Sequence record: PP216084
Strand: one strand, 5' to 3'
Length of the DNA stretch: 64,000 bases
From: Escherichia phage vB_EcoS_HZ_ZJUN2
Shown here piece after piece: positions 1-9,339 of this stretch. The notes below the pieces were generated by a model that was given only the letters and a program-made list of their open reading frames with translations, made no database searches and was not told the origin of the DNA. Position numbers and translations under genes: made by a program. Every line of letters begins with the position of its first letter. Positions within the stretch are counted from its first letter, which is position 1.

Positions 1-692
1 TGCTACGTATTTCTAGTGGAGTAGTTATTGGAACTCCTAATGGCGACGTAGATATTGGTACTGGGATGCAGGGTAAACAAACAGTATTTGTTTATAAGTT
101 AGCAACATCTCTACCCGCTAAACCACTAGAACAAGATTACCCACCTCCTGGTTGGTCTAAAACCCCACCTAACCGCACAGATATGACTCAAAATATTTAT
201 GCGACTACAGGTACACTTGACCCAGTAACTAATAAGCTACTTACGGGTACTAGCTGGTCTGACGTAGTTCAATGGAGTGGTACTGAAGGTACTATAGGTG
301 CAGATGGGCAAAGAGGTCCTGGCATGTATTCTTTAGGTATTCCAGGTCTTGGAGGCTGGGATGATGGACAAGCTAACGCCTTCTTCCAGAATAACTTTGG
401 TAGTCCACCAGTTAGATATGATGTATTGACTGAGTTTAATAGTAATGCTCCGCAATCTGCATTTACTCGTCAATGGAATGGTTCCAGTTGGATTAACCCT
501 GCAATGGTTCTTCATGGCAACATGATTGTTAATGGAACTGTGACTGCTGATAAGATTGTGGCAGGAAATGCCTTCTTATCACAAATCGGTGTTAATATAA
601 TCTATGATAGAAATGCCGCGTTATCAGGGAACCCTGAAGCATACTACAAGATGAAGATAGACCTAAATAGTGGGTATATCCATATAAGGTAA
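1..692 (+). CDS. tail structural protein, C-terminal part (5' end lies outside the window)
   Basis: Reading frame of the ATG at 66 stays open back to nt 3, so the gene starts upstream; Gly/Thr/Asn-rich fibre-like sequence; directly precedes the fibre genes. Confidence 0.5.
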
Positions 693-697
693 TTATA

Positions 698-1120
698 ATG
701 AGTACAGAAAACCGAGTTATTGATATTATTATTGATGAAAAAGTACCTTATGGTCTTATCATGCAATTTATGGATGTTGATGATAGTGTATATCCCCCAA
801 CAGAAGTTCCTGTTAACTTAACCGGATATTCACTCCGAGGAACTATTAAGTCTAGCTTAGACGAGAACGCCGAAGTTCTAGCTAACTTTAAAACTCGTGT
901 TATTGATGCTGCTCAAGGTGCTGCTGCAATTAGTCTTTCCGTTGCAGACGTTACTAATATTGGTGAAAAAGCATCTAAAGAACGTGATAAGTATAACCCA
1001 AGACAACGTTTTGCTGGTTATTATGATATCCTAATGACTCGTGATGTAATTGGCTCTGAAGTCAGTTCTTTCCGTATTATGGAAGGTAAAGTATACATCA
1101 GCGATGGAGTAACTCAATAA
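698..1120 (+). CDS. hypothetical protein; possible tail collar/fibre-associated protein (inferred from size and position only)
   Basis: 140-aa ORF with ATG and upstream AAGG; its stop overlaps the start of the next gene (TAATG). Confidence 0.45.
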
Positions 1121-4100
1121 TGGCACTTAAAACTAAAATTATTGTACAGCAGATCCTGAACATAGATGACACTACAACTACTGCTAGTAAGTATCCTAAA
1201 TATACAGTAGTTTTAGGTAATTCTACTAGTTCTATTACTGCTGGTGAATTAACTGCTGCTGTAGAGGCCGCTGCAGGATCCGCTGCTGCTGCTAAAAATT
1301 CTGAAATAGCAGCTAAAGACTCTGAAAATAAAGCTAAAGATTCAGAAATTCAGGCAGGTATTCATGCTGATGCTTCTGAGGCTTCAGCAACCCAGTCTGC
1401 TGCTTCTGCTGCTGAATCTGAAAAACAAGCTAACTTATCTCAAAGTAGTGCTGAAAACTCTGCTGCTTCTGCCTTAGAATCTAAAAATTTTAGAGACGCT
1501 GCCGCACTTGCTGCTCAAAATGCAGAGCAGAGTAAGATTTTAGCAGATCAAGCTCAAAGAGCGGCAGAAGCTGCCCAGACAGCGGCTGAAACAGCTAGGA
1601 CTGGCGCTGAAACAGCAAAAGCTGGAGCAGATGCTGCTGCTACAACTGCTGGAGAACACGCTGCTGCTGCGAAACAATCAGAATTAAATGCTAAAACTTC
1701 TGAGACTAATGCTGCTAGCTCTGCTACAGAAGCGGGTGACAAAGCTATTGATGCTACTACTGAAGCAGATCGTGCTAAAGCTGAAGCAGATCGTGCAACT
1801 CAGATTGTTGATAGTAAACTTGATAAGGTAGATATTTCTGGCTTCATCAAAGTTTATAAGACTAAAGCAGAAGCCGATGCTGATGTTGGAAGTCGTGTAC
1901 TAGGGGAGAAGATCCTAGTATGGAACCAAACTGATTCAAAGTACGGATGGTATAAAGTAGCTGGAACTGCTGAAGCTCCTGTTTTAGAGCTAGTAGAGAC
2001 AGAGCAAAAGCTAGTTTCTATTAACAACGTTCGTGCAGATGACGCAGGTAACGTACAGATTACTCTTCCTGGTGGTAACCCCTCTCTATGGCTGGGTGAA
2101 GTTACTTGGTTCCCTTATGATAAGGATTCAGGTGTTGGCTACCCTGGTGTTCTTCCTGCTGATGGTCGTGAAGTTCTTCGAGTAGACTATCCAGATACTT
2201 GGGAAGCTATTGAGGCTGGCTTAATCCCTTCTGTTACCGAAGAACAATGGCAAGCAGGTGCAACTCTCTACTTCTCCACTGGTAATGGTACTACTACTTT
2301 CCGTCTACCTGATATGATGCAGGGGCAGGCTTTCCGTGCACCTACTAAGGGGGAAGAAGATGGTGGTGCTATCAAGGAACAAATCCCTTATATCACTACT
2401 GTGAATGGAATTAGTCCTGCTGACGATACTGGAGCTATTAAGCTCCCTTACGTGGCGATGGTTAATGGAACTATTATACCAGATGAGAATGGAAACCTAG
2501 CACTAGGTAACGTTGTTACTAAGAATGTTTGGAATGGCACTAATGGAGAAGTTCTGCTTCGCGGTGCTTTTGGTTTAGGTGGTGTTGGTATTACATTAAA
2601 TGAACCAGATCTAGTATCCTTCTTTAAAGCTATGAGGGCCTTTGGTTCTGGGTATTATCGCAACGATACTGGAGTTGAAGGCTTGCCCGCGTATTCTGCA
2701 GGTTTCTACTCTAGAACAGCAGATACTAACTCATTTATCTGTTCTGGGTATGGTAGTGCCGTAGTATTTGCAGCTGCAATCAATGATGCTATTTTAGATA
2801 GTGAAAACCCTATTGTTCATACTAATATTCTTTATGGTACTGTTAATAAGCCGGATCTAAATGGTGATACTAATGGAGTTCTTAGTGTTGGTAAAGGTGG
2901 TACTGGAGCTACCACAGTTAGTGCTGCTAAGAAAGCTTTAGAAGTTGGTGGAGTTTTCTGTAATGATAGCCCAGCTGATGCTGCTTTCAACTCTCTCCAG
3001 AGCCCTGCTGGTATTCATGAGTTTAGACTAACTAATGAGGGGTTATGGGGTGTATGGAAGAAGGAGGAAGAAACGGTAGCTGCGTTGCCTATAGGCTCTG
3101 GAGGTACGGGAGCTACTGATAAAGTTGCTGCACGTGATAACTTTGGATTGGGGTATCATAATACTCCTAGATTTACTGGGGTAGATCTATCTAACCCCGA
3201 AAGTATACCCTATAGTGGTATCCTTAACCTAAACAGGCTAAAGGAATCTGATCAAAATGTTATTACTCAGGGTAGAATCTATCATGAGATGCAATCAGGC
3301 TTGGCTAAAATTACCCTTCATATTAACAATACTTTAAATAGTGCAAACCGTTATATACAGTTTGTAGAAAATGGTGATTTAACTGGGCTACAGAATGTAC
3401 ATGCAGTTAACTACCTTGCAAGTGGTTATGTTACAGCCCAGGGATGGATCAAAGGCGGGGAAAAAATCTATATACAGCAAACAGGTGGTGGCAACAGGGA
3501 AATTAGTATGGCTGTACCTACTCCTAATAATGACCCTGGTGCTGGTTCTTGGGTTAACTTACTACAGGGTAACTGGTATAACGGTTACTGGCAAGTAGGT
3601 GGTATCCGTGGTAGTGGACAAGATTTAACCTGTCTTCGCATTGGTGTTAATAACGCTGGTACTGATTGGAAGGAATTCAATTTCTACAACACCTATGGTG
3701 GCCATATAACTGCTCCAAAAGGTTTTCGTGGTCAGTGTACTCAAGGATATTGGGGCTTAGAGTGGGATTACATGGGCGCTCCATTTCATGCAGAGTCTGT
3801 AACAAATAATGATGGTGGTTGGTCTCCTATAGTATCGGGAGGTTCTTTATCCGCTGGTGGATATCATTTAAGAATAGGCCTTGGCTGTATCTCTAATGGT
3901 AACACTGCATGGCCTGACGCTGCTCTTAAGTTAAATGGGGATGGCCAGTTCCACCGTTCATTCAACTTTAGAACAAACGGTAGCGTGTATACTTGGGGTA
4001 ATGATCCTTGGGGAGGTAACTATGACTTTGCTATGAACCCTTCTTCAGATAGAGATATCAAAAGAGATATTAATTATGATGATGGGTTAGCCTCCTATGA

Positions 4101-4470
4101 GAATATAAAGCAATTTAAACCTACCACATTTATCTATAAACTAGATAAGTATAATCGTGTACGCCGTGGTGTTATTGCTCAAGATCTTTATAAAATTGAC
4201 CCTGAGTACGTAAAACTGGTTCCTGGTTCCCCTATCATAGAAACTCCAGAACATCATTGCTGTGACGAAAAAACTGAGAACGTAGAAAGTAAGATCATTG
4301 ACTATGAGGATGATACTTTAGCTCTGGATATTAACCCAATTGCTATTGATACAGCTTTAGCAGTTCGTTACTTATCTCTAAAGTTCGAAGAGTCCCAGGA
4401 AGAACTGAAGTCCGTTAAGGCAGAACTGGCAGAGTTAAAAGCTCTAGTAGCCACTCTGGTAAATAAGTAA
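1120..4470 (+). CDS. ltfA: L-shaped tail fibre protein (LtfA-like) with C-terminal intramolecular chaperone domain
   Basis: 1116 aa; Ala/Glu/Ser-rich repetitive N-terminal shaft; beta-rich Gly/Asn-rich body; C-terminal ~100 aa (…DDTLALDINPIAIDTALAVRYLSLKFEESQEELKS…) typical of self-cleaving fibre chaperone domains. Confidence 0.75.
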   Translation: MALKTKIIVQQILNIDDTTTTASKYPKYTVVLGNSTSSITAGELTAAVEAAAGSAAAAKNSEIAAKDSENKAKDSEIQAGIHADASEASATQSAASAAESEKQANLSQSSAENSAASALESKNFRDAAALAAQNAEQSKILADQAQRAAEAAQTAAETARTGAETAKAGADAAATTAGEHAAAAKQSELNAKTSETNAASSATEAGDKAIDATTEADRAKAEADRATQIVDSKLDKVDISGFIKVYKTKAEADADVGSRVLGEKILVWNQTDSKYGWYKVAGTAEAPVLELVETEQKLVSINNVRADDAGNVQITLPGGNPSLWLGEVTWFPYDKDSGVGYPGVLPADGREVLRVDYPDTWEAIEAGLIPSVTEEQWQAGATLYFSTGNGTTTFRLPDMMQGQAFRAPTKGEEDGGAIKEQIPYITTVNGISPADDTGAIKLPYVAMVNGTIIPDENGNLALGNVVTKNVWNGTNGEVLLRGAFGLGGVGITLNEPDLVSFFKAMRAFGSGYYRNDTGVEGLPAYSAGFYSRTADTNSFICSGYGSAVVFAAAINDAILDSENPIVHTNILYGTVNKPDLNGDTNGVLSVGKGGTGATTVSAAKKALEVGGVFCNDSPADAAFNSLQSPAGIHEFRLTNEGLWGVWKKEEETVAALPIGSGGTGATDKVAARDNFGLGYHNTPRFTGVDLSNPESIPYSGILNLNRLKESDQNVITQGRIYHEMQSGLAKITLHINNTLNSANRYIQFVENGDLTGLQNVHAVNYLASGYVTAQGWIKGGEKIYIQQTGGGNREISMAVPTPNNDPGAGSWVNLLQGNWYNGYWQVGGIRGSGQDLTCLRIGVNNAGTDWKEFNFYNTYGGHITAPKGFRGQCTQGYWGLEWDYMGAPFHAESVTNNDGGWSPIVSGGSLSAGGYHLRIGLGCISNGNTAWPDAALKLNGDGQFHRSFNFRTNGSVYTWGNDPWGGNYDFAMNPSSDRDIKRDINYDDGLASYENIKQFKPTTFIYKLDKYNRVRRGVIAQDLYKIDPEYVKLVPGSPIIETPEHHCCDEKTENVESKIIDYEDDTLALDINPIAIDTALAVRYLSLKFEESQEELKSVKAELAELKALVATLVNK

Positions 4471-4474
4471 GAGT

Positions 4475-4500
4475 ATAGGGGAGTAATTCTCCCCTATTTA
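4475..4500 (+). terminator. hairpin between the two fibre genes (weak intrinsic terminator or attenuator)
   Basis: 9-bp stem ATAGGGGAG/CTCCCCTAT with 5-nt loop, followed by a short T-containing tract. Confidence 0.45.
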
Positions 4501-4513
4501 CTAAGGAAATACT

Positions 4514-6757
4514 ATGTCACGTAATTTAATGCCTAAATCTGGCGCAATGGCGCCTTACGTAGTAGTTAACAGAGACGCTGCAGTTGCAGGAGTATTCTCT
4601 GTTGATGGAGAGGCTGGTGCTGTTGTACTAACCTCCAAGTATCTTCAAATATCTAACTATACTATAGATAAAGAAGAATTAAATACTCGTTTAACTGGTA
4701 TTGATAGTTCCATTCAGAACAATGTAGAGGCTATTGGCAATATTAATACTGCAATTGGTAGTATTAATAGTACTCTCAATACTAAAGCTGCTAAAGGTGC
4801 TAATAATGATATTACAGAATTAAATGCGCTTACTAAGGCTATTACTATAGCTCAGGGTGGGACAGGTGCTAGCACTGCGGAAAATGCTAGAGTTAACTTA
4901 GAGCTTAATAGGTTTAAGCAGTTCCCCGGTGAAACTCTAGTATATAGTCCTTCTGCGACAAACTATCTTACTGTTGGTGAAGGTACTACATGGGGAGTTT
5001 ATAGCACAGCTTCTGGTACATTTATACCTTTACCTATTCAATCTGGTGGGACAGGTGCTAGTACTCCTGCGGAGGCCTTAACTAAGCTGCTAGATGGTAA
5101 ACCTCTAGCATTAGCCGCCGATGGTCAAGCACCTTATGATGCTGTTACTGTTCGTCAGCTAGCTAATATCTCAGGAGGAGGTGGTGCTAGCATGAGTGGA
5201 GTTATGAATAATCGTATCGGTGCTGTTGAATGGTTCAATGGTAACCGTACTAAACTGCCAGCCGGCTATATACCAGCAGATGGTCAGTTAGTTAGCCGTA
5301 CTGATGCTAAAACAGCAGATCTATGGTCTGCGGTATCTAGTGGTCTATTTTACTCTGTTTCCGACGCTTTATGGATTAATAGTGGGGATCCTGTTAGACC
5401 CTGCGCTTGGAGAGCTTCCTACTCTACTGGTGATGGTTCTACTACTTTCCGAGTTCCAGATCTTAACGGTACTCAGTTAAATAGTATTAAGCATTTATTT
5501 TTATCTGGTAGTTCAGGTGCTACTAATGAACCTTCGGCTAATCAGGTGTGGAATCAGGTTGCCCCTAATATTACTGGTAATTTCTACACTCATGGTAGTA
5601 ACGCAGATGCTGCAGATGCCATGGGGGCTTTTTATTTAAATGCTCAAGATACAGGTAGTTCATTTAATATAGGAGGTACAGATAAGGGAGACCACTTAGG
5701 ATTTTCGGCCTCTAGAAGTAGCAAGACATACGGTCGTGGTGTGGCTTACCAACCAGACCCTGGTGGTACCAGCCCTATTGGTGATCTATACCCTAACCAT
5801 GCAGCCGGTATTTGGATTATCCGTGCTAACGGTTCTTTTAACGCTGCTAGTACAGACTTTTCTTCTATTAATGCTGATGCCTCGGCTCCTGCAGTTAGTA
5901 CAACTGTATTAGGTGGTAAACTAACCTCTCAATACAGAGTGGGTGCAACAGATGCGTATAGGATGCGTATGTATGCTCAAGGTGCCTATGCGCGAAACTT
6001 AGTGGGTGTTATAGCTGTAGAAAACCAATTAGCAAGTGAGATAGATGTGGCCCACTTTAATTTCGGGTTAGATGGTGCAATTAGGTTGGGAAAAGCTATA
6101 GGAGGTTCTTCAACTTCTTTAGCTTATGGGTACACTCCTTTTAGAGCACAAGATTGGTGGAATACTTCCCCCTATGGAGCTTTTGTCCCTATTGTTGGTG
6201 GAGGTACAGGAGGGCCTGGAGGCGCTTGGAGAAGCTATACGGCTCTAGGTACACTTACTATGGGTAGTGATATTAACACTCACCCAAATGCAATGCTTAC
6301 ACAATGCTGGGATTACAATCTTAGTACTGGGGAATCCCCTAGTGGTAACACTGTTAGAAATACTATCTTTAATGGTACTAGTTATGATATTACTTTTGGT
6401 GATAATGCAGGTACTGTTAACTATATATTTAGTAAGTCTCCAATTTCAGATCGTAATAAGAAAAAGGATATTGAATCCTTAAGCACTTCCATTGCTCTGG
6501 AGAATATTAAGCAGATGGAGTATATCTCATTTAAGTACATATATGATAAAGGGAATCAGGTACGTAGAGGTTTTATCGCGCAACAACTAGAGGAGATTGA
6601 TAGTCAATATGTAAGAAAATACGAATCTTCCGACGGTTCTACTTCTCTGGCCCTAGATGAGAATGTGCTTCTATTAGATGCTTTGGCGGCAATTCAAAAT
6701 CTAAGTAATCAGATAGAGGAGCTAAAACTTCAGATAGCTGAGTTAAAGGCTAAGTAA
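4514..6757 (+). CDS. ltfB: second tail fibre protein (LtfB-like) with C-terminal intramolecular chaperone domain
   Basis: 747 aa; AAGGAAA RBS; Gly/Thr/Ser-rich; C-terminus (…STSLALDENVLLLDALAAIQNLSNQIEELKLQ…) is paralogous to the LtfA C-terminus. Confidence 0.7.
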   Translation: MSRNLMPKSGAMAPYVVVNRDAAVAGVFSVDGEAGAVVLTSKYLQISNYTIDKEELNTRLTGIDSSIQNNVEAIGNINTAIGSINSTLNTKAAKGANNDITELNALTKAITIAQGGTGASTAENARVNLELNRFKQFPGETLVYSPSATNYLTVGEGTTWGVYSTASGTFIPLPIQSGGTGASTPAEALTKLLDGKPLALAADGQAPYDAVTVRQLANISGGGGASMSGVMNNRIGAVEWFNGNRTKLPAGYIPADGQLVSRTDAKTADLWSAVSSGLFYSVSDALWINSGDPVRPCAWRASYSTGDGSTTFRVPDLNGTQLNSIKHLFLSGSSGATNEPSANQVWNQVAPNITGNFYTHGSNADAADAMGAFYLNAQDTGSSFNIGGTDKGDHLGFSASRSSKTYGRGVAYQPDPGGTSPIGDLYPNHAAGIWIIRANGSFNAASTDFSSINADASAPAVSTTVLGGKLTSQYRVGATDAYRMRMYAQGAYARNLVGVIAVENQLASEIDVAHFNFGLDGAIRLGKAIGGSSTSLAYGYTPFRAQDWWNTSPYGAFVPIVGGGTGGPGGAWRSYTALGTLTMGSDINTHPNAMLTQCWDYNLSTGESPSGNTVRNTIFNGTSYDITFGDNAGTVNYIFSKSPISDRNKKKDIESLSTSIALENIKQMEYISFKYIYDKGNQVRRGFIAQQLEEIDSQYVRKYESSDGSTSLALDENVLLLDALAAIQNLSNQIEELKLQIAELKAK

Positions 6758-6794
6758 AAGAAAACCCCAGTGGATTGTCCACTGGGGTTTTTTA
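6758..6794. terminator. bidirectional intrinsic terminator between the late (+) and early (-) blocks
   Basis: 11-bp stem AACCCCAGTGG/CCACTGGGGTT, A-run on the 5' side and T-run on the 3' side. Confidence 0.8.
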
Positions 6795-7067
6795 TTAATC
6801 TTTACTTCCTTTGATAATACCTAAGTTATACACGGCTAACATGGCTTTGAGAGTTGGATCTTGAGACTCATTACATAGGTTCAAGAATCCTTCTTCATCC
6901 CAATGTTCCACATTACCAAACATATCGACTTTAAGTACAATTTTGTTAAGATCAGGCTGAGCAACAGCCACATGATAGAAATTAGTAGGTTCAACTAAGT
7001 CTAAGCCTACCCCATTAGGGTCAACAAAATTATTTACTTCCTGAACTTCCAAATCCACCTTCTCCAC
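6795..7067 (-). CDS. hypothetical protein
   Basis: 90-aa ORF downstream of dUTPase; its 5' end overlaps the dut 3' end, so the true start is uncertain. Confidence 0.35.
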   Translation of the reverse strand: MEKVDLEVQEVNNFVDPNGVGLDLVEPTNFYHVAVAQPDLNKIVLKVDMFGNVEHWDEEGFLNLCNESQDPTLKAMLAVYNLGIIKGSKD

Positions 7068-7476
7068 GATCAGTCTCCTCTAGTTCGTCAACGATTTCAA
7101 AATTATGAGTTGAGTAGTGTGGCACTACTACTAGCTGACAAAGTCTTTCAAAATTCTCCAGAGTTTGAATTTCAGAACCATAGTTATAAAGGTTCATCTT
7201 AATAGTTCCACGATAGTCTGAGTCGATCACTCCTGCGGTATTTGCAATCATCAAATGACGTTTACCTAAAGAACTACGAGGAACTACCAAACCGAACCAA
7301 CCTCGCGGAATTTCCACCGCGACACCGGTGTCAATCATCAAGGATTTGCCTGGTGCAATAGCACGTAAATCTGCAGCAGGATTAGTACCAAAGAATGCTC
7401 GCAGGTCCATACCTGCGGCATCTTTGGAACCAATCTTAGGCATACAATCTGGATGAGTTAATTTAATTTTAATCAT
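7030..7476 (-). CDS. dut: dUTP diphosphatase (dUTPase)
   Basis: 148 aa; trimeric dUTPase motifs AGMDLRA, RSSLG and C-terminal RGEGGFGSSG. Confidence 0.8.
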   Translation of the reverse strand: MIKIKLTHPDCMPKIGSKDAAGMDLRAFFGTNPAADLRAIAPGKSLMIDTGVAVEIPRGWFGLVVPRSSLGKRHLMIANTAGVIDSDYRGTIKMNLYNYGSEIQTLENFERLCQLVVVPHYSTHNFEIVDELEETDRGEGGFGSSGSK

Positions 7477-8348
7477 TGTTCTGCAATCTCCAAAATATCT
7501 TTTGTAAACTTATCTAATACATCTTGACCTACAGCAGCAATAGCATCCACACAGTAGGTAGGTAAATCAACCAGAATTAGGTTTCGATAAAGCAATTCTT
7601 CCGAAGCATTTAAATTCTGTATATATTTCTGTTTTCCAGGCAATGGAAGCTGATCAATAATATCCAGAACGTTACCAAATTCACGAATAATATTATACCC
7701 GCGTTTTGCCCCAATACCTTCAACACCTCGGATATTATCCCCTAAATCACCCATAATTGCTTTCAAAGAGATAAACTGCTCTACATCGTCAACACTATGA
7801 TGCTCATACATATCACGAAGATGATATTCACGGCGTGTTGTGAAAGAGAAGCGAGAAACTTTATCTGTTAATAAAGTATCCCAGTCACCGTCTGTAGAAA
7901 TCAACCAAATGTGGTCATATAGATGCCCGATTAGCTTAACAATATAGGCTGCCATGTCATCTGCCTCTACACCACGAATAGTGAATGTTGGGAATGTAGT
8001 TTCACATAGTTCGAAAGCATCTTTCAAATACTCGAAGAACTGCTCATCTAACGCTTTCTCCTCTTCCGTACGCTGAGAGTATTTCTCATCTCGATTCCCT
8101 TTATACTCGGGGAGATGCTCCAGGCGGAATGCAGACTTCCCTTTATCTCCTAAAACTATTGTAGTTCTAGCAGAATAAGATTTTGCAAGAGACTGAATAG
8201 TGGAAACATAACTTGAGGCAAATGGTTTTTTACTATTGTTATGCTTGAAGCGAAAGCCTAAGTTAGTTCCATCGACAATCATTAGATTACGACGGGAAGC
8301 CATTTCAGCTTCCTCTTCTTCAATAAATTTTCCCCAGGATTTACTCAT
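7473..8348 (-). CDS. flap endonuclease / 5'-3' exonuclease (T5 D15-like)
   Basis: 291 aa; N-terminal MIVDGTNLGFRF motif of the 5' nuclease family; position next to dut as in T5. Confidence 0.85.
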   Translation of the reverse strand: MSKSWGKFIEEEEAEMASRRNLMIVDGTNLGFRFKHNNSKKPFASSYVSTIQSLAKSYSARTTIVLGDKGKSAFRLEHLPEYKGNRDEKYSQRTEEEKALDEQFFEYLKDAFELCETTFPTFTIRGVEADDMAAYIVKLIGHLYDHIWLISTDGDWDTLLTDKVSRFSFTTRREYHLRDMYEHHSVDDVEQFISLKAIMGDLGDNIRGVEGIGAKRGYNIIREFGNVLDIIDQLPLPGKQKYIQNLNASEELLYRNLILVDLPTYCVDAIAAVGQDVLDKFTKDILEIAEQ

Positions 8349-8830
8349 TATTTAATTAAGTCCTCAACAGATGCATGATGTAGCCACGGCTCAAATAAAC
8401 CAATTACGATTTCCATGTCTTTCTTATTTAACACCATATGGGTACGACTCATTAAGTTGTCAACCATCGGGTCTGAGCTATCCAAAGCTATTAACCACTG
8501 TCCTCTGTCTTTTTTGAATATTAATGCAGGTTTGGAGTTCATCTGCTCACCTTCACGTGAGCACTGCTGCCACCATTTCTCTAGGGTGGATTCGCCAACA
8601 TTAAATAAATTACTTGATATATTATCATCTTTATACCACTTAACTTCGAAGCAGTATTTACTAATGTGTCCGCTTTGTGGTGGAAGGTAGATGTCACCTT
8701 TCAGTCCGTGGCTCTGGCCAAAAGCACCAGAGCCAGGAACACGTTCCCACTCAAGACCTGTACGTTCACGTAAAATATCTCTTACCTGATATTCACCACG
8801 TTTACCCTTCTCTCTACTATCTACAGCCAT
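8348..8830 (-). CDS. putative PD-(D/E)xK nuclease (Holliday-junction-resolvase-like; D14-like by position)
   Basis: 160 aa; GKRGE…GDIYL…FEVKW pattern consistent with a D…E-x-K nuclease core. Confidence 0.5.
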   Translation of the reverse strand: MAVDSREKGKRGEYQVRDILRERTGLEWERVPGSGAFGQSHGLKGDIYLPPQSGHISKYCFEVKWYKDDNISSNLFNVGESTLEKWWQQCSREGEQMNSKPALIFKKDRGQWLIALDSSDPMVDNLMSRTHMVLNKKDMEIVIGLFEPWLHHASVEDLIK

Positions 8831-9339
8831 TATTCCTCTGGGAAATTTAATACTGCGAAATCACCGAAGTATTCTTTTGCTTTAATATCATATGCTTTGG
8901 CGGCCTCCTCTAGAGTATTAAAAGATCCTAAGTTCTCTCTAATACCAGTATTAGGGTTCTTAATTCTAGCCCTGGGTTTACCATCTCTACCGTTGGGGAA
9001 ATCTAAACCTTTATACTTAGTAGTCTTAGATCTAGAAGCTCTATTTTGGGCTTGCTGGGACTTAGAAGCATTACGTAAGTTATCTGGAGTATCATTTTGT
9101 CTATTTCTATCTTTATGATCCACTGAGTCTGCCCAGGTACCGTTTGTCATAAAGTAAATTAAATCGTATACTCTATATTCCGTCCCCTTAATACTTGTTC
9201 TATAATATCCATCTTTCGATAGGGATCCAACTCGAGACCCTCTTTTAGCTGATCCTACCGATTTTCTATAGAATAGAGTACCATCCCTAATTTCATACCT
9301 ATCCTGTAGGAACTCTATAGTTATATCTTGCTTTTTCAT
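8830..9339 (-). CDS. HNH homing endonuclease with AP2-like DNA-binding domain
   Basis: VDHKDRNRQNDTPDNLR HNH motif; C-terminal AP2-like segment (…LGSFNTLEEAAKAYD…FAVLNF). Confidence 0.75.
   Translation of the reverse strand: MKKQDITIEFLQDRYEIRDGTLFYRKSVGSAKRGSRVGSLSKDGYYRTSIKGTEYRVYDLIYFMTNGTWADSVDHKDRNRQNDTPDNLRNASKSQQAQNRASRSKTTKYKGLDFPNGRDGKPRARIKNPNTGIRENLGSFNTLEEAAKAYDIKAKEYFGDFAVLNFPEE

Follow-up and report, generated by a model that had tools for sequence, protein, structure and literature searches.

Organization of the side tail fiber locus

The DNA analyzed here is a 64,000-nucleotide (nt) stretch of Escherichia phage vB_EcoS_HZ_ZJUN2 (sequence record PP216084; one strand, 5' to 3'), referred to below as the window. 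At its start lies a tail fiber locus with two consecutive fiber genes, ltfA and ltfB (Table 1). Their coordinates and lengths are exactly those of the first-pass annotation of this DNA, which had proposed successive fiber proteins of 1116 and 747 amino acids (aa) from the open reading frames (ORFs). The gene order is pb4-ltfC-ltfA-ltfB-terminator, followed by convergent early genes, and it is syntenic with that of phages DT571/2, SPC35, NBEco001, DaisyDussoix and HdH2. The frame of pb4, the gene of the straight central fiber, is open from nt 3 to a stop codon at 690-692 and matches the Pfam profile PB4_spike at positions 129-315 of 315 (E 1.4e-112). LtfA and LtfB match, end-to-end, two tail fiber families of the PHROGs database, phrog_5481 and phrog_6921, respectively. 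The locus encodes the described side tail fiber of the DT57C type, made up of a pair of proteins (LtfA and LtfB), which is known from well over a hundred sequenced relatives and is not new. Only three points are new: (i) the pairing of the LtfA and LtfB alleles, (ii) a crossover located on a conserved motif, and (iii) the conservation of an intergenic hairpin in structure only.

Table 1. Features of the tail fiber locus (positions in the window)
Feature	Position	Strand	Basis or remark
pb4, 3' end (straight central fiber gene)	1-692	+	truncated by the window edge
ltfC, side-fiber-anchoring collar protein, 140 aa	698-1120	+	Pfam PF23926 LtfC, 57.9 bits
ltfA, proximal/backbone side-fiber protein, 1116 aa, ATG	1120-4470	+	ORF list
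Predicted trimeric alpha-helical coiled-coil shaft, Ala/Ser/Glu-rich heptads, LtfA ~40-232	1237-1815	+	composition, periodicity, DT57C structure
phiEco32 gp14/SU10 gp12-like mid region, proposed LtfB dock, LtfA 223-442	1786-2445	+	BLASTP, phmmer
Distal variable part, presumed receptor-binding end, SPC35-type allele, LtfA 443-975	2446-4044	+	nt identity
LtfA chaperone, residues 976-1116, predicted self-cleavage Ser975/Ser976	4045-4467	+	PF13884, Ser/Lys pair, AlphaFold2 model
ltfA-ltfB intergenic stem-loop, 9 bp, 5-nt loop	4475-4497	+	stem 4475-4483/4489-4497, loop 4484-4488
Shine-Dalgarno-like AAGGA, 6 nt 5' of the ltfB ATG	4503-4507	+	kept in the alignment of relatives
ltfB, second side-fiber protein, 747 aa, ATG	4514-6757	+	ORF list
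Conserved N-terminal peptide, presumed LtfA attachment, LtfB 1-60	4514-4693	+	98% identity to DT571/2
GGTGAS...AR.NLEL motif (...AQGGTGASTAENARVNLEL...), crossover point in LtfB	4856-4906	+	segment ends, switch to HdH2
WIIRA..F.AA.T..IN.DA junction, second LtfB module boundary	5813-5870	+	similarity ends, conservation
LtfB chaperone, residues 645-747, predicted self-cleavage Ile644/Ser645	6446-6754	+	PF13884, Ser/Lys pair, AlphaFold2 model
Bidirectional intrinsic terminator between the convergent late (fiber) and early (dut side) units	6759-6793	.	16-bp stem, T runs on both strands

The arrangement is already known, since 235 phage records contain the N-terminal peptide of LtfB, both protein names are in use in recent routine phage descriptions, and the BASEL paper (PMC8594841) gives as prior knowledge that the lateral fibers of Markadamsvirinae are formed by "a single large polypeptide or 2 (or more) separate proteins". 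Phages DT57C and DT571/2 (Golomidova et al., 2016, PMC4728585; Ayala et al., 2023, PMC10713586, PDB 8hqz) likewise have the order ltfC-ltfA-ltfB-terminator-dut, two chaperone domains and a hairpin in the spacer, and LtfC of DT571/2 shares 93% identity with its counterpart in the window. The two phages differ from the window in the distal parts of both LtfA and LtfB, and the O-antigen specificities assigned to them (O22-like and O81 for DT57C, O87 and O81 for DT571/2) are therefore not transferable to the window phage. The first-pass annotation had compared the arrangement with that of DT57C, and on this point synteny, the LtfA N-terminus, the gp14-like mid region, the LtfB peptide and the two chaperones all agree.

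Two further T5-like lineages each share one of the two fiber proteins with the window. SPC35 has the same LtfA type, but paired with a 695-aa LtfB of another type, whereas HdH2 and the contigs L008 and L016 have the same LtfB type, but paired with a 1027-aa LtfA and lacking the spacer and the hairpin. Classical T5, as was stated in the first-pass annotation, has a single fiber gene, a 1396-aa ltf at the same position (structures PDB 4UW7/4UW8, PMC4690869), and no LtfB. Its product, pb1, shares with the proteins of the window an N-terminal region responsible for tail attachment and coiled-coil formation, the S74 chaperone with its Ser/Lys pair, the position and the bidirectional terminator. An end-to-end alignment of the two ORFs with this single gene was not obtained: in BLASTP pb1 covers LtfA residues 1-230 (46% identity, pb1 1-215) and 479-578 and nothing more, its polymannose O-antigen-binding domain has no match to LtfA or LtfB, and LtfB has no detectable similarity to pb1. 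The kuraviruses phiEco32 (gp14/gp15) and SU10 (gp12/gp13; PMC9509320, PDB 7z47) share the LtfA mid region as well as the N-terminus and the tip and chaperone of LtfB, and the spacer within their fiber gene pair is also ~40 nt long and contains a hairpin. These phages are, however, podoviruses, in which the fiber joins the adaptor via a different N-terminus, and phiEco32 gp14 has no chaperone-type C-terminus in the alignment.

Chaperone domains of LtfA and LtfB

Both fiber proteins end in a domain of the Peptidase_S74 family (PF13884, "chaperone of endosialidase"; curated gathering cut-off 22 bits). Residues 976-1032 of LtfA score 39.2 bits and residues 645-700 of LtfB 49.4 bits, covering positions 1-58 and 1-57, respectively, of the 58 positions of the model. 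As had been proposed in the first-pass annotation, the C-termini are paralogues of each other, with 35% identity in an alignment of 158 columns (E 9e-19). The length of about 100 aa given there for both domains holds for LtfB, in which 103 aa separate the conserved Ser from the end of the protein, but the domain of LtfA is longer (141 aa). An S-D-x3-K motif present in both proteins (S976/K981 in LtfA, S645/K650 in LtfB) aligns with S1264/K1269 of T5 pb1, whose chaperone is released by its own cut between Thr1263 and Ser1264, for which Lys1269 activates the Ser (PMC4690869). Among 93 LtfB homologues K650 is invariant, and at least 90% of them retain S645 and D646.

The fold of the two domains was predicted with AlphaFold2. 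A homologue search with the last 190 residues of LtfB gave a single match, which was too few, and the full-length query was used for the model alignment. The resulting model of the whole LtfB protein (93-sequence alignment) has predicted local distance difference test (pLDDT) values of 83-92 over residues 650-747, and its best matches among solved structures (Foldseek) are MyRF ICA (7dc3; E 5e-6, target template modeling (TM) score 0.60-0.64) and K1F endosialidase (3gw6). The model of LtfA residues 901-1116 (mean pLDDT 80) has as its best matches 7dc3, 3gw6 and GA-1 gp12 (3gud). Across both models the target TM score to 7dc3 is 0.60-0.67, and unrelated folds all have E values of at least 0.3. 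A sequence search of solved structures with the same C-termini retrieved only DT57C LtfA, 8jov and 6f45 (E 1e-3 to 1e-5) and reached T5 pb1, 3gw6 and 3gud with neither of them. Because sequence searches missed known chaperones, the fold was settled by prediction and Foldseek. Both C-termini, including that of the second gene, are predicted to have the chaperone fold, i.e., a mixed alpha/beta unit and, after it, a long C-terminal helix. The Pfam match, the Ser-x4-Lys pair and the predicted fold are shared by both proteins with the S74 chaperones 3gw6, 3gud and 7dc3, and an insert in LtfA is extra.

This insert comprises 24 residues (...ETPEHHCCDEKTENVESKIIDYED...; residues ~1035-1058, nt 4222-4293), includes a His-His-Cys-Cys set (PEHHCCDEKTEN...) and is modeled with low confidence (pLDDT 59-64). 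It is common to the LtfA alleles of SPC35, NBEco001 and DaisyDussoix and absent from LtfB and from the other aligned relatives; a metal-binding role would be a guess. A different solution may exist in Yersinia phage phiR2-01, in which the annotation of the gene directly 5' of ltfB is that of a gp38-like tail assembly chaperone and not that of the end of a fiber gene, which suggests that the first fiber of that phage uses a separate chaperone, not a built-in one.

Modular structure of LtfA

The N-terminal part of LtfA is of the DT57C type: residues 1-442 share 87% identity with DT571/2 LtfA, and residues 1-458 match DT57C LtfA chain 8hqz_d (whole-chain E 4.6e-242). Over its entire length the protein shares 94.8% identity with LtfA of SPC35, which is equally long (1116 aa).

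The tract at nt 1250-1800 encodes LtfA residues 44-227, of which Ala makes up 35%, Ser 11% and Glu 10%, and Pro is absent. Its register is seven-residue (SAAAAKN SEIAAKD SENKAKD ..., S-x-x-A-A-x-x), a 3.5-residue hydrophobic periodicity was matched by 10 of 1000 shuffles, and Tandem Repeats Finder detected a weak 21-nt (7-codon) periodicity. In DT57C the homologous helix of LtfA begins at T40 and forms a three-helix coiled coil (PMC10713586), and deletion of one shaft residue, A198, abolishes fiber function (PMC4728585). The Ala/Ser/Glu-rich tract corresponds to the coiled-coil shaft of the DT57C structure.

The same tract had been regarded in the first-pass annotation as a likely recombination hot spot. 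The shaft is the most polymorphic part of the otherwise conserved 5' half, with 29-36 informative sites per 120 nt, versus 1-3 at its edges, in seven relatives. The variation has a block-wise, mosaic structure: NBEco001 shows 97-100% identity over 1300-1540 and 47-83% over 1540-1840, and SPC35 shows the opposite. In each of 1000 permutations the compatibility of neighboring sites exceeded that of the permuted ones; of all site pairs, 47% fail the four-gamete test. The expectation is thus borne out as far as the mosaic shaft is concerned, but it does not extend to the receptor-binding ends. Exchanges within the tract shuffle shaft alleles; the crossovers by which receptor-binding ends are swapped are located at conserved motifs farther downstream.

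The mid region of LtfA shares 42% identity with residues 239-461 of phiEco32 gp14 (BLASTP, E 4e-46) and matches residues 247-461 of SU10 gp12 (chain 7z47_D; phmmer, i-E 1e-41). The role of this gp14-like region in the docking of LtfB is a proposal of Golomidova et al. (PMC4728585). The distal half of LtfA (2440-4470) shares 96.8% nt identity with SPC35, Th1, NR01, ABTNLsp9 and others, and 57 of the 91 records matching it are Salmonella phages. The distal part has less than 30% identity with DT571/2 LtfA and is allelic among relatives.

Modular structure and prevalence of LtfB

LtfB combines a widespread N-terminus with a rare distal part. Its residues 1-120 are nearly identical (~95%) to those of DT571/2 LtfB, compared with 40% identity for the whole protein and 18-46%, by 50-residue block, for residues 150-747. 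The first 50 residues share 66% identity with phiEco32 gp15. Of the 235 phage records containing the N-terminal 60 residues, ~145 show at least 80% identity, with T5-like genomes of 103-123 kb among the matches listed, and 90 show 60-80% identity, being mostly of Kuravirus size (~70-82 kb) among the matches listed. In the monomer model pLDDT stays below 40 for residues 1-45, which is compatible with folding on a partner and is not evidence for it. LtfB of HdH2 has the same length (747 aa) and 94.8% identity; at the nt level the distal part (4900-6757) is 96% identical to HdH2 and is otherwise found full-length in Salmonella phage Sw2 only. Outside the collar-like and chaperone segments the distal parts of LtfA and LtfB are mutually unrelated, and they vary independently among relatives.

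Two further similarities were observed within these proteins. The final ~150 residues of LtfB (tip and chaperone; 6185-6754) share 55-66% identity with phiEco32 gp15, so that an LtfB/gp15 distal cassette is common to a siphovirus and a podovirus family, beyond the N-terminal peptide noted in the 2016 paper. In addition, LtfA 325-399 and LtfB 235-317 (nt 2085-2316 and 5213-5467) are internal paralogues (37% identity) with the motif ...STG(D/N)G(S/T)TTFR(V/L)PD..., and the LtfB segment gives a weak match to the Pfam family Phage Tail Collar. These collar-like paralogues contain a 43-nt direct DNA repeat with 81% identity (2271-2313 and 5419-5461). In relatives of DT57C, recombination between repeats shared by ltfA and ltfB gave ltfA-ltfB fusion deletions (PMC4728585).

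Recombinant composition of the locus

When ltfB was compared with its relatives in 30-nt bins, the gene proved to be 100% SPC35/DaisyDussoix-like at 4514-4573, 100% DT571/2-like at 4664-4723 and 97-100% HdH2-like from 4874. The high-identity matches to NBEco001, DaisyDussoix, DT571/2 and SPC35 all end at 4867-4871. The locus is recombinant, being of the SPC35 type to ~nt 4871 and of the HdH2 type in the rest of LtfB, with the join placed by these segment ends inside the conserved GGTGAS motif. Sister motifs are located at 2896-2946, 3100-3150 and 5045-5095, and other segment ends were found at 2922, inside the GGTGAT motif 2896-2946, and at 5023, just 5' of the motif 5045-5095. NBEco001 and DaisyDussoix, which are the best matches for the whole region, lose similarity at ~5850; together with that of ECOP18 it stops at 5848-5854, in the WIIRA junction. 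Just 42-48 nt of this junction are common to otherwise unrelated LtfB alleles, and its residues W434, I436, G440 and A444 are near-invariant among the 93 homologues.

An LtfA end of the SPC35 type together with an LtfB end of the HdH2 type was present in none of the phage records searched, and the window thus joins known cassettes in a new way, at a conserved seam. Exact-sequence look-ups with LtfA and LtfB of the window returned no public contig. The position of the crossover, exactly on the GGTGAS motif, supports the view that such motifs are natural seams between fiber modules, and it marks likely workable sites for engineered swaps.

One of the relatives, L008 (contig AAZHFZ010000001.1, assembly GCA_017234315.1, labelled Shigella sonnei), is a 110-kb T5-like phage contig in a bacterial assembly, in which ltfB is broken into two ORFs (L008 positions 6550-7329 and 7977-8795). 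This could be a natural fiber-defective variant or a sequencing error; on a rough host, fiber-less mutants arose at ~30% (Golomidova et al., PMC4728585).

Intergenic hairpin and downstream terminator

The TAA stop codon of ltfA (4468-4470) is followed by a 43-nt spacer, with AAGGA, and by the ATG of ltfB at 4514. The hairpin between the two fiber genes, already marked in the first-pass annotation, is present in this spacer as a 9-bp stem-loop with 5 G-C pairs (-16 to -17 kcal/mol; z-score -2.3 to -3.0 versus shuffles). The full stem is followed by UUACUAAGG, with three U only, and relatives likewise have no more than about three U. A terminator scan flags the + strand hairpin only with a shortened, 6-bp stem, and it reports 6 terminator-like sites in 7.5 kb, which does not exceed the shuffle expectation of 4.4 +/- 2.0.

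Spacers of different lineages were not alignable column for column, and each was folded separately. A hairpin was found in 10 of the 10 genomes folded (the window and 9 relatives), from a few to ~10 nt 5' of the ribosome-binding site of the second gene, with modest individual z-scores (-1.1 to -3.8). The spacer sequence of SPC35 and Sepoy is that of the window, and at least five different stem sequences were distinguished: (i) GGGGAG/CUCCCC in the window, NBEco001, Stitch and Ob_P, (ii) GGGGC/GCCCC in DT571/2 and phiR201, (iii) GCUCCC/GGGAGC in phiEco32 and Bas94, (iv) CCCCUC/GAGGGG in Paul, and (v) GAUUAG/CUAAUC in 26175IV. In the lineage with the 1027-aa LtfA, the end coordinate of ltfA is the start of ltfB (5704 in HdH2, 6550 in L008 and 6001 in L016), leaving no spacer and no hairpin; the HdH2 junction reads TAATG, in which the ltfA stop and the ltfB start overlap. 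The hairpin is thus dispensable for a working two-gene locus. It is most likely a weak terminator or a stabilizer of the RNA 3' end, and would tend to move along with the ltfB cassette.

The terminator downstream of ltfB (-25.6 kcal/mol, z-score -6.4) is the strong structure in this locus, and the annotation of T5 lists the homologous site as a rho-independent terminator that is efficient and bidirectional. An Rfam scan of positions 1-7600 gave nothing above the gathering score and four weak matches, all of them on this terminator.

Proposed structure of the fiber and alternative explanations

The region is best explained, in full, as the module for the lateral (L-shaped) tail fiber in a T5-like phage whose fiber is of the two-protein LtfA/LtfB type, and we hold this explanation with high confidence. 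Gene content, homologies, conserved catalytic residues, predicted folds and the recombinant make-up come from the analyses described above; for the mechanism of the fiber we rely on homologues, namely on experiments with DT57C, DT571/2, T5 pb1 and K1F endosialidase. By analogy with these, each fiber protein would trimerize with the help of its own C-terminal chaperone, which would then cut itself off before Ser976 of LtfA or Ser645 of LtfB, exposing the receptor-binding tip, and the mature products would be LtfA 1-975 and LtfB 1-644. The LtfC collar would hold three LtfA trimers, and the gp14-like mid part of each LtfA would be the docking site for the N-terminus of one LtfB trimer. Each fiber would be branched and would end in two different glycan-binding tips, most likely for O-antigens, which may help the phage to pass the O-antigen layer before its pb5-type protein engages the final receptor in the outer membrane.

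The branch geometry and the two receptor specificities, as assumed here, go back to experiments on DT57C and DT571/2. The branched-fiber model was built by Golomidova et al. on the LtfA/gp14 and LtfB/gp15 homologies; in phages of this type an ltfA amber mutant loses both O-antigen hosts and an ltfB opal mutant loses one, and a swap of the LtfA C-terminal part between DT57C and DT571/2 switches the host range with LtfB unchanged (PMC4728585). Cryo-electron microscopy (cryo-EM) of DT57C revealed 12 LtfC subunits, forming a dodecameric ring, which clamp nine LtfA N-termini, while robust LtfB density was absent from the tail core (PMC10713586).

Several observations weigh against this explanation. 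The self-cleavage of LtfA and LtfB is predicted from conserved residues only, the hairpin at 4475-4497 lacks the tract of five or more U that characterizes an intrinsic terminator, and receptors of the SPC35-type LtfA end and of the HdH2-type LtfB end were not found in the literature consulted. The joint between LtfB and LtfA is resolved in no structure (PMC10713586, PMC9509320), and the binding of the two proteins in the window phage is inferred. Finally, in the view of the authors of the SU10 structure, the homologous pair forms one elbowed fiber, with a proximal and a distal half and no branch (PMC9509320).

The last of these observations corresponds to the strongest of the alternatives, a serial fiber of two segments, in which LtfB would be attached end-to-end, through an elbow, to the far end of LtfA, so that only the LtfB tip would be exposed and each fiber would have one specificity. 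SU10 gp12 is named "long tail fiber proximal" and gp13 "distal", with a single elbow at 300 + 400 A (PMC9509320), and the absence of a chaperone-type C-terminus from phiEco32 gp14 fits such a construction. In the window, however, LtfA extends past the presumed dock by ~530 variable residues and ends in an intact chaperone of its own, as expected of a tip that is free and exposed, which makes the serial fiber unlikely here. The allelic character of this distal part among relatives and the host range change caused by the LtfA distal swap of DT57C/DT571/2 at a constant LtfB (PMC4728585) also argue against it.

Even less probable is an LtfB that acts as an independent fiber or spike, mounted directly on the tail tip and not via LtfA. 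In its favor, the DT57C map has, at low contour, weak densities near the tail tip, which the authors assigned to folded-back LtfB (PMC10713586). The lack of robust LtfB density on the tail core, mentioned above, speaks against this location. Moreover, the ltfA amber mutant loses the LtfB-dependent infection as well (PMC4728585), and the N-terminus of LtfB resembles only that of phiEco32 gp15, with LtfA possessing the matching gp14-like segment. The possibility that a stop codon or frameshift divided a single pb1-like gene, either recently or as an artefact, with LtfB not being an independent protein, was rejected as having practically no chance of being correct: single-gene relatives of T5 exist, ltfA-ltfB fusion deletions arise in the laboratory (PMC4728585) and L008 carries a broken ltfB, but in the window a complete LtfA chaperone and a stop codon are followed by the hairpin-bearing spacer, AAGGA and ATG, LtfB has its own conserved N-terminus (235 records) and no BLASTP similarity to T5 pb1, and the layout of two ORFs is annotated in all close relatives inspected (NBEco001, DaisyDussoix, HdH2, DT571/2 and SPC35).

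For annotation purposes, the two-protein fiber module means that the region should be labeled ltfC, ltfA and ltfB (branched lateral tail fiber), which is routine. The two distal ends decide which O-antigen-bearing strains can be reached, and in the window each derives from a different known lineage. Combining an LtfA end known mainly from Salmonella phages with an LtfB end of which the tip is gp15-like and which is known full-length only from E. coli phage HdH2 and Salmonella phage Sw2 may provide a cross-genus or unusually broad O-antigen range. The hairpin, in turn, whose shape but not sequence is preserved in T5-like siphoviruses and in Kuravirus podoviruses, may set how much LtfA is made relative to LtfB, or how stable the ltfA message is, while traveling with the ltfB cassette, and is a candidate small regulatory lead. 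That both suggestions hold together is rather doubtful, and they are offered as tentative.

Neighboring genes

The minus strand past ltfB encodes a DUF7369 protein, a dUTPase, a flap endonuclease and a RusA-like resolvase, which corresponds to the D14-D15-dut block of T5. The 90-aa ORF of the DUF7369 protein (118 bits; 6795-7067, - strand) overlaps the end of dut and is kept in T5 (T5.132), DaisyDussoix, HdH2 and the contigs L008 and L016. A promoter scan, with 20 sigma-70-like sites against 18 +/- 3.9 expected, was uninformative. Short antisense ORFs within ltfA (1554-1742, 62 aa; 3395-3598, 67 aa) and ltfB (6267-6482, 71 aa) were regarded as side effects of sequence composition.

A 169-aa ORF at 8830-9339 (- strand), which matches the Pfam family HNH_3 endonuclease (30.4 bits), starts at the end of the D14-like resolvase gene (8348-8830). 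In T5, DT571/2, L008 and L016 the resolvase gene is directly followed by the gene of the SbcC-like D13 protein, and the HNH_3 ORF looks like an inserted homing endonuclease gene. Variation in the presence and absence of homing-type genes near the fiber locus was reported in the BASEL paper (PMC8594841).

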